Assembly (NCBI GenBank): GCA_038740615.1
Contig: JAVYLQ010000005.1
Coordinates: 1 to 22,001 of the forward strand
From: Candidatus Anstonellales archaeon
GTDB lineage: Archaea; Micrarchaeota; Micrarchaeia; Anstonellales; J096
Length of the DNA: 22,001 nt
Direction: 5' to 3'
A program made the position numbers. Below, in pieces: positions 1-3,000 of this stretch. Position 1 is the stretch's first letter. Each line of letters opens with the position of its first letter.

Positions 1-3000
1 TGGATTATTAGAGCACCAAATCTGAATCTGAATATTCCAGCATATGCGATATGGGTATATATTAGTAGTATAAAATCCAGATTCGATAAAGCACTGAGGT
101 TAGCTGAAGAGTATAGCAGAAAGGGAATAAGAGATGAGAGAGAGGATATTAAAGATTTAAGAGAGAAGTTCAGAGAATTGGTTCGGAATGGAATATTAGA
201 CTCTACAACAGATCTAGAACTTGTGATATTGGCAAAAGAGCTTGATGCCTCCATATTAACAGCTGATCAGGGGATAATTAAGTTTGCAGAATCCTTGGGC
301 TGTTCAATAATATATGCAGATTCTGTGAAATACTTTTTGGATAATTATGGATTGGGTGATAATCGCTAGTTTATTCTCTTTTATACCAGGAATGCATCCA
401 AATACATATTGTTCTCTTTTCTATAATTCAGAATTGATCGGCTATGTTATAGGTTTTACGATAATCATGTCAGTACTTGGGATTGTGTTGTTTAGTACTT
501 CATCAGATTCCACCGTAGGTCCATTTGTATATCGATTATTCCAGCAGGATAGTGGATATGTATATCAATATTTACTATTCATGCTAATAGGTATGGGGTT
601 TGGAGTTCTAATAGGGGATCTGTACGAAATTGTACAACAGTTAAAAAATTACCGATATTTTGTTTATTCTATTGTAATTTTTATAATTATATACATATTA
701 ATTAGAAAAAATATAAAATTCACCCTAGGATTTCTTATCAGTGGACTGTGGGGATTGATGGTTATAGATGAGAAATATATGTTTCATATATTTGCTGGTA
801 TGTTTGGATTAGTGTATTTATTCAATAGTTTGATAGATAATGACAATAATACTAGCTCAGCTGAATTGAAAAGTACTAATATCGACATTAATATAGATTC
901 AATCCTTTATATGGTCTTAGGGATTGTAGTGGGTTATTTTTCACTGATATTCCCAGGAATCTCCTCCCCATCTATTTTTGGATCTCTTTTCATAGCAATC
1001 CCCAATCCATCTCAATATATTTACTATTATTCTACTCTGATAGGTTTTCAATCCACTGCCAGTATATACTATTACTACTATACCGGTAATATCAGAAATG
1101 GTTATGTTACTTGTATTAACTCTACAGAGAGACTACTACAGATGTTTATTGGAATAATCCTAGGTACAGCTGTCTTATTTATGATTGTGAAGTATTTAGG
1201 ATCTATAACAATTCCTAAATTTATCTATTTAATAGTGGTGTTTATTATATTAGGATATTCTTATGTATCAGAAGGGATATTTGGTGTGTTTATTACTTTT
1301 GGATCAGCTATTGTTTCATACATAAATCAGGTTCCTCTGAGAGCTGGAGCTGATGCAAACATGGGAGTTATTGCCATACCAACGTTATATCTAATTATTA
1401 GATTTTTTATTCAATACTAATTCTTTTACATAATTCTTGTAATTTTGTGGTAAGAATATACTAACATAAGTTTCTACATCAGTATTGTTACATTCAGAAT
1501 AGTTGATGTATATTTTAATAGTGTTGGCCATTCTAGTTATATTATATACTTCAATCTCACAAGCATTTGGGATAGAAAATACATAATTATATGATAAATT
1601 CTCAGAACTATTCAAACTCCATTCAACTGGACTCTCATTAATAATCATCTGCTGTATATGTATTACTAAGATTAATAGGAATACTACTCCGATTATCTCT
1701 AATTCGCTTAAGAATCTGCGCAAATGCTCTCTATTTGCTAATAGAATTGATATCACTCCTATGGAGAACAATATTAGGAAAAGTATAATGAAAAAATCCA
1801 TCTTAGAACAACTTCTCCCCTACATATACCTTTATCCCTCTAGGGGTAACCCTATATGGCACTATATCAGTGTTGTGGGCAGTTCCTCTAAGTTTATATA
1901 TTTCAAGAGCTCTGATTCTTGTCTCTCCTCTATATATATTATAGAGATTTATAATTCCGTCTAAAACATAATGCTCTATTGAGTATTCAAAAGATTCTCT
2001 AGCTGATGTAGGAGCTTCTATTATTGGAAATACACTTATGTCTAAAGTTCTAAGTAGATTTAGAAACTCTATCAGGCCTCTTCTATATTCTGGCTCAGAG
2101 CTAAATAGAGATTTGAATATTGTTAGAGAATCAATAACAAGTCTGGAAACATTGTATTTTAACACCCCTTTCTCTATCTGGTTGATAATTCCATTGATAT
2201 CATATGTCTCATTTTTCTCTATTATCAGCATATTTCTATTTACCAAATCTCTTATATTTTTAAACTCTGAAAACTGGGATTCCATATTCTCTATTATCAT
2301 CTCTGGTGGTTCTTCTAGCGTGAAATAATACCCTACTTCACCCATCAGAGCTCCTTTATACAATATTTCGAATGTAAATGTAGTCTTACCAGTACCTGGT
2401 CCACCATAGAATCCTATGTGCCTGTTCTTTGGGAATCCTCCGTTTAGCATCTCATCAAACTCAGCAATTCCAGTTTTTATTTTCTCTACCATATGCTAGT
2501 ATTATGTGAGTTACGTTTTATAAATCTTTATCAAAATTAAACTTATGGACATATTAGAGAATCCTGTTAAGGATGTGGATAATTTAAAAGATTACTTGAA
2601 TTATATCACCCAAGTAGGTTTTCAATCTACTGAATTGGGAAGAGCAAGAGAGGTTCTAAAGGAGATGTACAATCAGAAAAATGTTCTAAAAATACTGACT
2701 TTTACAGGGAATCTAGTTGCCACAGGACTGAGAGGATTTTTTATGAGAATGATTGAGAGAGGATATGTAGATATTATAGTTACAACTGGCGCTACAATAG
2801 ATCATGATGTTATAAGAAGTTTTACCGATTATTACATAGGCAGATTTAAGGTGAATGATAGGGAACTTTACAATCAAGGGATAAATCGATTGGGTAACAT
2901 ATACGTACCTGATAGTGCATATGAACTCTTTGAAAAAATAACAAGAGAGATTTTCAGAGATGGAGGCGAATACAGTCCTAGCGAGATAGCCTGGAAATAT

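Follow-up and report, generated by a model that had tools for sequence, protein, structure and literature searches.

The window analyzed here is a 22,001-nt stretch at the start of contig JAVYLQ010000005.1 from a Candidatus Anstonellales archaeon of the Micrarchaeota (genome G000; 541,905 bases in 31 contigs, 83% complete). Its first feature, at positions 1..369 on the + strand, is the 3' part, about two-thirds, of a gene for HARP, the protein-only RNase P of the PIN_5 family. This reading frame is open at its 5' end and runs for 122 codons to a TAG stop at 367-369. It matched PF08745 (PIN_5) with 103.3 bits (cut-off 27) over profile positions 80-203 of 205, and it was the only match to that profile in the whole genome. 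The congeneric genome G008 has an orthologue of 185 aa; the window fragment covers its residues 64-185 and is 95% identical to it. The first-pass annotation had placed the HARP gene here and described it as cut by the contig end. We found HARP codons 1-26 at the end of another contig (C9:79..2), and contigs from assembly runs X1-X3 extend 1,816 nt further upstream of window position 1. The truncation is therefore an assembly break only.

Immediately downstream, at 347..1420 (+), the ORF list gives a hydrophobic protein of 357 aa to which no Pfam family was matched. The first 23 nt of this ORF, beginning with its ATG, overlap the HARP gene, and the two are therefore probably co-transcribed. This ORF occupies the place where other genera of the family have the RNA ligase Rnl3. 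Archaeal HARPs are often paired with Rnl3 (PMC12153264), and likewise Rnl3 adjoins HARP in two other genomes of the family, G004 and G014. In genus g1, to which G000 belongs and which is the most reduced genus, Rnl3 was found in none of the six genomes although HARP is retained in all six. Further into the window, ARAGORN identified an intron-containing tRNA-Trp gene (13193..13280, +) with TATA-like hexamers at -36/-35 and -26. It is one of 32 tRNAs of G000, all of which are presumptive HARP substrates.

The catalytic aspartates of the Aquifex enzyme Aq880 are given as D7, D138, D142, and D161 in PMC8266387, and we placed this numbering on the HARPs studied here by motif. The first aspartate lies in the sequence MRIVVDTS, encoded on C9:79..2. 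The second is the GAC codon at 199..201 (+), aligned to D130 of the G008 protein and equivalent by motif to Aq880 D138; the third is the GAT codon at 211..213 (+), aligned to G008 D134 (Aq880 D142); and the fourth is the GAT codon at 265..267 (+), aligned to G008 D152 in the motif T-A-D-Q-G (Aq880 D161). None of the three aspartates encoded in the window varied among the 15 aligned family sequences, and all four catalytic columns contained aspartate in every family sequence covering them and in the solved HARPs. The glutamine after the fourth aspartate is not a defect, because that residue varies in the solved HARPs (T, E, or V). The other 14 HARP genes of the family are all full length (177-231 aa; the G014 protein has 184 aa when read from the internal ATG at which its homologous region starts). 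They matched PF08745 with 124-184 bits, and full-length alignment to solved HARPs gave E-values of 1e-24 to 1e-28.

Because the protein encoded in the window is incomplete, we modeled the fold of the G008 orthologue. The model (pLDDT 89.7) had long helices at 77-104 and 109-125, and its best structural matches were the pre-tRNA-bound Aquifex and Hydrogenobacter HARPs (PDB 8kd9 and 8kda; TM 0.79-0.82). Ordinary VapC-type PIN domains reached TM values of only 0.35-0.48. The predicted structure is thus that of a PIN-like metallonuclease with an inserted two-helix spike-helix domain. Comparison of the G000 and G008 genes gave a dN/dS of 0.125; HARP is intact and under purifying selection.

The RNase P RNA and its proteins were another matter. 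A search of G000 with RF00373, the Rfam model of the archaeal RNA, gave no match at E<=10. Among the 19 genomes of the family (f1), a real RNase P RNA was found in six (53-90 bits, 179-241 nt) and nothing above 14.8 bits was found in the other 13. These 13 genomes belong to three genera: g1 (G000 and five others), g2 (four), and g5 (three). The genera are labeled differently in the first-pass annotation, but its total, 12 further genomes from three genera, is the same. Rpp29 scored above its cut-off in exactly the six RNA-bearing genomes and in none of the 13. In RNA-bearing genomes the gene order is SUI1-Rpp29-S17. SUI1 and S17 are neighbors without Rpp29 in G014, G054, and G106, where gaps of 79, 10, and 190 nt separate them, and the cluster breaks at the SUI1-S17 junction in G000, G009, and G004. 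Rpp29 was therefore missing from its conserved slot in all six RNA-less genomes examined. The breaks lie in contig interiors and so do not reflect assembly gaps. A tblastn search of G000 with two Rpp29 proteins from the family returned nothing better than E 9.4. Rpp21 was above its cut-off in four of the 19 genomes, G017 scored 26 bits, and the RNA-less genomes did not exceed 17.9 bits. Pop5 and Rpp30 were over their cut-offs in none of the 19 genomes. Since they are undetectable even in the RNA-bearing relatives, profile searches evidently miss some of the RNP proteins and these two are uninformative. These results bear out the earlier claims that the 12 other genomes share the missing RNA with G000, that Rpp29 follows the RNA, that Rpp21 is restricted, and that Pop5 and Rpp30 are not found in the family.

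HARP was encoded in 15 of the 19 family genomes, including all of the 13 that are RNA-less. Across the order, 120 of 151 genomes had an RNase P RNA matching RF00373. Both the RNA and Rpp29 were missing in 24 of the 151; HARP was present in every one of these 24, while the double loss occurred in none of the 70 HARP-free genomes. The 24 comprise the 13 RNA-less bins of f1 and 11 bins of a second family, f9, where the HARP-only state was seen in genera g23, g26, g38, and g41. The counts that the first-pass annotation had given for family f6 (RNA in 39 of 42) and for g23 (RNA in none of seven, HARP in all seven) were reproduced. Both enzymes are present in the sister genomes G010 and G017 and in most of f9. 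A three-protein tree (S17, L14, and L24; 352 columns, 12 genomes) gave 34-73% support to nodes within the family; it does not decide whether the genera g1, g2, and g5 are a single clade, nor the number of losses.

In these genera, then, the genes of the RNP enzyme have been lost while HARP has been kept and constrained, as first proposed: no RNA was found, the Rpp29 slot is empty, and the four aspartates and the fold are conserved. Our preferred explanation, with a probability of roughly 0.6, is that these Micrarchaeota have no RNase P other than HARP and that it cleaves their pre-tRNAs. HARP would have belonged to the common stock of the lineage, since both enzymes occur together in some sister genera. 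The RNA, Rpp29, and Rpp21 would then have been lost from this genus, whose genomes measure 0.5-0.6 Mb, and from two of its sister genera, leaving HARP as the sole remaining enzyme able to remove tRNA 5' leaders. Each tRNA gene would be transcribed from its own TATA box, and judging from promoter geometry most transcripts should have a leader of about 1-6 nt, with a few longer. The active form of HARP is described in PMC8266387 as a homo-oligomer of dimers that assemble up to a dodecamer. Such an oligomer would bind the tRNA elbow through the spike-helix domain, and the four-aspartate metal site would cut at -1/+1 and leave a 5'-phosphate.

One possibility that we consider rather unlikely is that the RNP enzyme has truly been lost but that tRNA 5' maturation is not the task of HARP. 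Transcripts would have no leader or one of a few nucleotides, which could be tolerated or nibbled away by another nuclease, while HARP would have another RNA-processing role, as is suspected in other archaea. To judge this we used the position of a TATA-like hexamer as a proxy for leader length. In G000 the box was at the position typical of leaderless mRNAs (-29..-26) for nine of 32 tRNAs, as compared to 154 of 241 boxed ORFs, and the medians were -30 and -28, respectively (Mann-Whitney p 2e-4). The displacement is thus only about 2 nt, and leaders of up to 7 nt are tolerated in E. coli according to PMC12439589. With leaders predicted to be this short, 5' trimming could be dispensable or could be performed by another nuclease. 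HARP is also non-essential in the model euryarchaea Haloferax volcanii and Methanosarcina mazei; HARP knock-outs in two euryarchaea are described as having no phenotype (PMC12153264; PMC10941002). The same two sources report that HARPs are 10-100x slower than RNP RNase P and that pre-tRNA is not cleaved by certain recombinant HARPs. Finally, the adjacency of Rnl3 and HARP in G004 and G014 would fit a separate HARP-ligase pathway.

On the other hand, the box was away from the leaderless position in 23 of the 32 tRNAs of G000, including tRNA-Tyr, which begins with C1 and has its box at -32/-31. The boxes of tRNAs thus stand upstream of the position typical of leaderless mRNAs, and the promoter geometry predicts short leaders for most tRNAs. 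In the RNA-less G004, where only 14 of 30 tRNAs had a recognizable box, none of the 14 boxes was at the leaderless position and their median (-32.5) was the same as in the RNA-bearing G017; the loss of the RNP was therefore apparently not accompanied by shortening of the leaders. In G014 a box was at the leaderless position in none of 14 tRNAs. The tRNA complement of genus g5 is odd, as a 93%-complete genome gave just 14 standard tRNA hits. Moreover, g1 keeps HARP after the loss of Rnl3, and the restriction of the double loss to HARP-bearing genomes would be unexplained if HARP were irrelevant to it.

These data also bear on the suggestion, raised in the first-pass annotation, that the tRNAs might be leaderless as in Nanoarchaeum equitans. 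That organism resembles G000 in being a DPANN archaeon with a genome of about 0.5 Mb that is without RNase P RNA and RNP proteins and has a box A promoter for each tRNA gene. However, according to PMC3491384, its box A stands at a constant distance of 26 nt from the start site, and every one of its tRNAs begins at the transcription start. The geometry seen here does not fit such an arrangement, the box being displaced upstream in the 23 tRNAs of G000 mentioned above and in all 14 boxed tRNAs of G004. Nor is this a Nanoarchaeum-type state, in which no RNase P enzyme is encoded, as all 13 RNA-less genomes of the family have HARP.

It is improbable that an RNase P RNA is present but was undetected, either as an extremely reduced, fragmented, permuted, or intron-bearing molecule or as a gene that is systematically missing from the bins. 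The RNAs of this family are already short, and five of the six scored under the Rfam gathering score. RNAs with only 25-35 Rfam bits occur in the order, and the SRP RNA of G000 itself scored 54.5 bits where the gathering score is 96.5. The drastically shortened type T RNase P RNA of Pyrobaculum was at first undetected as well. However, the type T model (RF02357) gave nothing in G000, G009, and G004 and only hits of 10 bits or less in G014 and G054. Organisms with a type T RNA retain Pop5 and Rpp30, whereas no RNP protein was found in the RNA-less genomes here.

According to the first-pass annotation, no covariance model could be built from the short RNAs. Such a model could in fact be obtained: R1, a lineage-specific model from 16 short RNAs with 208 positions, scored 109.5-136.4 bits on the six RNA-bearing family genomes, which are its training set, with background hits in RNA-bearing genomes reaching 14.4 bits. 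Five divergent RNAs from the order had been held out; R1 recovered all of them, with 26-79 bits as compared to only 25-35.5 bits from Rfam. It found nothing above 17.2 bits in the 13 family genomes that are RNA-less or in five further RNA-less, HARP-bearing genomes, which speaks against the concern that a divergent or minimal RNA had escaped the searches. The three best of its weak hits fell within ORFs of 753, 330, and 270 aa and had no counterpart in G000. Weak and short whole-model matches were given by Rfam in G001 and G014-16 and by R1 in G001, G005, and G106; those from Rfam were unmatched by R1. A first, loose P4 descriptor proved too permissive in the AT-rich G000 (226 hits) and was tightened. 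The resulting CR-I/CR-V/P4 descriptor recovered all six family RNAs, and in G000 it gave no candidate above 0.43 GC, as compared to 0.49-0.56 for the three real RNAs of known GC. All 28 GC-rich non-coding segments of G000 were explained (24 tRNAs, the 5S rRNA, the presumed 16S rRNA, and two short ORFs), so that no orphan GC-rich non-coding island was left. The neighbors of the RNA gene in genus g4 have orthologues in G000, and these lie directly against other ORFs without any intervening gap.

The loss of Rpp29 from a syntenic site, and that of Rpp21, also argue against a hidden RNA. All of the genomes are metagenome bins, 77-93% complete, but multiplying (1 - completeness) for all 13 RNA-less genomes gives 6e-12 if the misses are independent, and two of these genomes, G004 and G014, consist of five contigs each and are 91% and 93% complete, as had been noted before. 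It is scarcely credible that mis-binned or chimeric bins account for the HARP contigs or for the missing RNP: every genome is a bin and the HARP gene of G000 is split over two contig ends, but the pattern is repeated in 13 of 13 RNA-less family bins and in the 11 of f9, contamination estimates are 0.4-4%, the HARP of G000 is 95% identical to that of the congeneric G008, and the window (0.336 GC) is as AT-rich as the rest of the genome.

HARP as the only RNase P has its closest parallel in the Aquificaceae (Aquifex aeolicus with Aq880, Hydrogenobacter thermophilus), given in PMC12439589 as the only verified HARP-only organisms. The proteins are of the same family and share the fold and the four aspartates, and in both groups HARP is present and RNase P RNA and RNP protein genes are missing, here from incomplete bins. 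The Aquificaceae, however, lost the bacterial rnpB/rnpA pair, whereas here the host is archaeal and a multi-protein archaeal RNP has been lost, from 0.5-1 Mb genomes of symbiont-type DPANN archaea. Aquifex tRNAs are in tandem clusters or rRNA operons (PMC10941002); those studied here are solitary, with very short predicted leaders. In addition, the HARP-only state recurs here in two families of one order.

The HARPs of Haloferax volcanii, Methanosarcina mazei, and Methanothermobacter also belong to this family. In those archaea HARP coexists with the RNP, as in G010, G017, and most of f9, while in the 13 genomes the RNP is gone. In PMC6380272, PMC10941002, and PMC12439589 all HARP-encoding archaea are said to keep RNase P RNA and proteins, and DPANN are said to be without HARP. 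The printed view is thus as the earlier annotation had represented it. The printed position of the field up to 2025 is that HARP has no housekeeping role in archaea and that no organisms other than the Aquificaceae depend solely on HARP. Our literature search found no report of HARP-only archaea or of RNase P loss in Micrarchaeota or DPANN, and the supplementary files of PMC12153264, the text of which may be incomplete, contain no mention of Micrarchae, Woesearchae, Nanoarchae, or DPANN. Reliance on HARP without the RNP therefore appears to be unreported for any archaeon.

Across the order, the data could be read to mean that HARP has replaced the RNase P ribozyme at least twice (in g1, g2, and g5 of f1 and in g23, g26, g38, and g41 of f9), each time where HARP already stood beside the RNP. 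HARP would then be a standing back-up that made the ribozyme expendable during genome reduction, and in g1, where Rnl3 has been shed, it would work alone as a housekeeping enzyme. We regard the chances for and against this wider scenario as evenly balanced.

RNase P RNA belongs to the small set of ribozymes regarded as universal in Archaea. If our reading of the locus is true, an archaeal HARP can carry the entire load of tRNA 5' processing, and there are living intermediates in a series that leads from RNP only, through both enzymes, to HARP only. The role of HARP in archaea would also become open to experiment, since co-cultures now exist for some Micrarchaeota.

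In the genome studied, G000, the only match to the HARP (PIN_5) profile PF08745 in 541,905 bases (31 contigs, 83% complete) was the 5'-open 3' fragment at positions 1-369 of the window, which is contig C5 (+ strand; 122 codons followed by TAG). This fragment scored 103.3 bits (cut-off 27), spanned profile positions 80-203 of 205, and was 95% identical across its 122 residues to the 185-aa orthologue of G008, a genome of the same genus (g1). The first-pass annotation had described a HARP truncated at the contig start; the cut is there, but it is a break in the assembly. Using the G008 orthologue as tblastn query, we located residues 1-26 at the extreme end of contig C9 (C9:79..2), where the piece reads MRIVVDTSIFGNPEIYSMFDQDRAAS; about 37 codons between the two pieces are unassembled. 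Contigs from three public sequencing runs (X1-X3) span window position 1 onward and reach 1,816 nt further upstream. The G000 HARP gene is interrupted by assembly rather than mutation. Runs that contain the window carry the label hot springs metagenomes, and contigs of other hot-spring runs differ from it at bases 68, 70, 315 and 721. At 68 and 70, where X1-X3 have variant bases, contigs of those hot-spring runs also end, suggesting that strain-level variation at HARP split the assembly.

In genus g1, HARP is directly followed, with a 23-nt overlap, by a hydrophobic 357-aa ORF that belongs to no Pfam family (ORF list and Pfam search). A KaiC-type ATPase (1803-2492, - strand, 159 bits) and a deoxyhypusine synthase (2545-3435, + strand, 324 bits) lie downstream and have no evident connection to HARP.

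The window protein is an ordinary member of the known HARP family. The G008 orthologue matched seven solved "RNA-free ribonuclease P" sequences end to end (E 1e-24 to 5e-28). Its structure, modelled from an alignment of 15 family sequences (pLDDT 89.7), contains two long inserted helices (residues 77-104 and 109-125) and best matched Aquifex, Hydrogenobacter and Planctomycetes HARPs, some of them bound to pre-tRNA (TM 0.79-0.82), versus 0.35-0.48 at most for VapC-type ordinary PIN domains. PMC8266387 gives D7, D138, D142 and D161 as the indispensable aspartates of Aq880. By motif, these correspond to columns that are Asp in each family sequence covering them; the first is encoded on the C9 piece, and putative catalytic codons in the window, placed by motif in the family alignment, are 199-201, 211-213 and 265-267 (+ strand). 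All 14 other HARP genes of the family are full length (177-231 aa, with that of G014 counted as 184 aa from the internal ATG at which homology begins). The G000 and G008 genes differ by 12 synonymous and 6 non-synonymous changes (dN/dS 0.125). More distant HARP relatives were found in records named Candidatus Woesearchaeota.

The Rfam archaeal RNase P RNA model, RF00373, matched 120 of the 151 genomes of the order. Within the family of G000 (f1, 19 genomes) the RNA was clear in six (G010, G011-G013, G017 and G018; 179-241 nt, 53-90 bits). The other 13 (G000 and five further members of g1, four of g2, three of g5) gave 14.8 bits at best, and G000 had no match at E<=10. The RNAs of this family are short even where kept, and five of six fall below the Rfam gathering score.

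The protein subunits followed the same division, bearing out the proposal that Rpp29 and Rpp21 were lost along with the RNA. Within the family, Rpp29 (PF01868) passed its cut-off in all six genomes with the RNA and in none of the 13 others; Rpp21 (PF04032) was above cut-off in four of the six, scored 26 bits in G017 and reached at most 17.9 bits in the RNA-less genomes. Profile searches for Pop5 and Rpp30 gave nothing above cut-off in any of the 19 genomes, RNA-bearing kin included, and their absence is uninformative either way. The composition of the RNA-bearing genomes, with a short RNA, Rpp29, mostly Rpp21 and no detectable Pop5 or Rpp30, suggests that the ribonucleoprotein (RNP) was already reduced family-wide.

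The strongest single result for the absence of RNP proteins is synteny. In RNA-bearing genomes Rpp29 lies between SUI1 and S17 in a ribosomal-protein cluster, and it was missing from this slot in all six RNA-less genomes examined. Where the cluster is intact, the SUI1-S17 gap is 79 nt (G014, g5), 10 nt (G054, g23) or 190 nt (G106, g38). In G000 and G009 (g1) and G004 (g2), the cluster is split exactly at the SUI1/S17 junction, contig-interior, which separates S19-L22-S3-L29-SUI1 from S17-L14-L24-S4e. Both halves in G000 are on the 54-kb contig C2 (C2:5215-7500 and C2:21574-23489), 16 kb apart, with a tRNA-Thr now ahead of S17. Two family Rpp29 proteins searched by tblastn against the whole of G000 gave a best E of 9.4. 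The case for loss of the RNP genes is strong, and we regard it as highly probable.

We combined the RNA, HARP and Rpp29 searches over the same 151 genomes, assigning unlisted genomes by elimination from the listed positives. RNA and Rpp29 were both present in 116 genomes, RNA without Rpp29 in four (G028, G097, G111 and G123), and Rpp29 without RNA in seven (G077, G084, G093, G095, G096, G147 and G148), the last most readily explained by gaps in the assemblies or by divergent RNAs. The remaining 24 genomes had neither, and all 24 possess HARP: 13 belong to f1 and 11 to a second family, f9 (g23, 7/7; g26, one; g38, two; g41, one). HARP was confined to f1 (14 of 18, plus G000) and f9 (66 of 74), with 0/58 in ten other families, and double loss occurred in none of the 70 HARP-free genomes; kin among the genomes counted are not independent. 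There were at least two loss events, one per family, a figure not refinable because support in a three-protein tree is 34-73% inside f1. The original observation, RNP loss with HARP kept in G000 and 12 relatives, is borne out and extended.

According to Seshadri and Gopalan (PMC12153264), 89% of HARP-positive genomes carry the ligase Rnl3 (TIGR01209), often adjacent. In f1, we found Rnl3 in G001, G004, G014 and G017. It adjoins HARP in G004 (C3:41917-43502, same strand) and G014 (C1:169789-171344, divergent), and in G017 (C3:13740-14914) a weak Rpp21-like ORF, not HARP. None of the six g1 genomes, the smallest, had a match; they are without RNA, Rpp29, Rpp21 and Rnl3, and all six keep HARP. 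This retention fits a ligase-independent, indispensable role. The best overall explanation has HARP as the housekeeping enzyme that matures tRNA 5' ends, to which we assign a probability of roughly 0.6.

One alternative is that, with leaders so very short, 5' cleavage can be dispensed with or falls to another nuclease. The restriction of double loss to HARP-bearing lineages speaks against it, and we consider it unlikely, though it is the chief competitor; promoter geometry bears on it as well. In G000, TT[TA]A[AT]A hexamers upstream of the initial ATG in 538 long ORFs peak sharply at -30 to -27 (45, 72, 66 and 54 starts; 237 in all), and most mRNAs therefore appear leaderless. A box A spacing of 26-27 nt, given for N. 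equitans in PMC3491384, matches this peak. Nearly every one of the 32 G000 tRNA genes (ARAGORN; five intron-bearing, one with encoded CCA by inspection) has its own TTTTAAA-type box. Taking the closest box within -45..-22 and defining -29..-26 as the leaderless position, we found 29 of the 32 tRNAs boxed, nine at the leaderless position (median -30), as compared to 241 of 538 ORFs boxed, 154 at that position (median -28; Mann-Whitney p 2e-4). Three tRNAs had no box in range and several had one at -37 to -42. For RNA-less G004, 14 of the 30 best-scoring of 43 tRNAs were boxed, none at the leaderless position (median -32.5), versus 31 of 80 ORFs, 16 at that position (median -29; p 0.058). For RNA-bearing G017, the figures were 20 of the 30 best-scoring of 44, four at that position (median -32.5), versus 39 of 119 ORFs, 21 at that position (median -29; p 0.027). 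None of the 14 tRNAs of RNA-less G014 had a hexamer at -29..-26.

The tRNAs of RNA-less genomes are therefore predicted to be short-leadered, like those of RNA-bearing kin; the leaders predicted for G004 are no shorter than those of G017, and in G000 any trend to shorter ones is partial at most. In Nanoarchaeum, by contrast, each tRNA begins at the transcription start. The first-pass annotation had left room for such leaderless tRNAs; with boxes at the leaderless position in 9/32 (G000), 0/14 (G004) and 0/14 (G014), the positions do not fit that arrangement.

Two side observations concern the tRNA genes. G014 (g5; 93% complete, 5 contigs, 1 Mb) gave only 14 tRNA matches (RF00005, E<=1e-5; loci L098-L111), several of them 92-147 nt long, versus 44 in G017 and 43 in G004; in g5, tRNA genes may contain heavy interruptions or be unusual in some other way. 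Three G000 tRNA-Val genes (TAC, CAC and GAC; C13:29-102, C15:6380-6453 and C21:8638-8711), two at contig ends, are followed by an identical 25-nt sequence that looks like an assembly-breaking repeat.

Another possibility is that an RNase P RNA is hidden in these genomes. Structured RNAs of this lineage do diverge from Rfam's models: the SRP RNA of G000 (C13:6210-6469, found separately) reached only 54.5 bits, with the gathering score at 96.5. A covariance model of the short RNAs, earlier thought not buildable, was built here from the six family RNAs and ten from the order (<=224 nt, among 30 loci listed from the RF00373 scan), with pairs P1-P3 from RNAalifold and one 3-bp hairpin removed as judged spurious (208 positions, 21 pairs). 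It scored 109.5-136.4 bits on the six RNA-bearing training genomes and recovered, at Rfam's sites, all five of the weakest order RNAs outside the training set (26.1, 31.3, 52.7, 66.0 and 78.6 bits versus 25-35.5 with Rfam). In the 13 RNA-less family genomes its best score was 17.2 bits (background in RNA-bearing genomes, up to 14.4), and five f9 double-loss genomes gave nothing higher. We rejected the three best weak matches: they fall within ORFs of 753, 330 and 270 aa, and G000 shows no counterpart to them.

The type T model (RF02357) had no match in G000, G009 or G004 and reached at most 10 bits in G014 and G054. A CR-I/CR-V/P4-pairing descriptor recovered 6/6 family RNAs; its 101 loose candidates in G000 had a maximum GC of 0.43 over the spanned region, versus 0.49-0.56 in three real RNAs, and none of the 25 highest in GC resembled the family consensus. 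A census of G000 segments with >=0.47 GC over 80 nt, not mostly covered by long ORFs, returned 28: 24 tRNAs, 5S rRNA, the presumed 16S rRNA (1.4 kb) and two short putative protein genes, with no orphan structured-RNA island. The G000 orthologues of genes flanking the RNA gene in genus g4 adjoin other ORFs with zero intergenic room. The reported lack of the RNA in G000 and its 12 relatives thus held under RF00373 and our model, under RF02357 in five RNA-less genomes, and under the descriptor and census in G000. A hidden RNA is improbable, more so than dispensable cleavage. Binning artefacts, which rank below dispensable cleavage too, are very improbable.

As the first-pass annotation stated, the printed view, in Daniels et al. 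2019 (PMC6380272), is that DPANN all lack HARP and that every archaeon with HARP also has RNP proteins. Davydov et al. 2025 (PMC12439589) name the Aquificaceae as the sole verified HARP-only organisms. Our literature search turned up no published account of archaea with HARP alone or of Micrarchaeota that have lost RNase P, and the portion available of the supplementary text of PMC12153264 does not name Micrarchaeota, Woesearchaeota or DPANN. The protein itself belongs to a known family and is ordinary within it. The novelty would lie in the state of the organism, an archaeon that lives on HARP and has no RNase P ribozyme, and in the recurrence of this state in two families.
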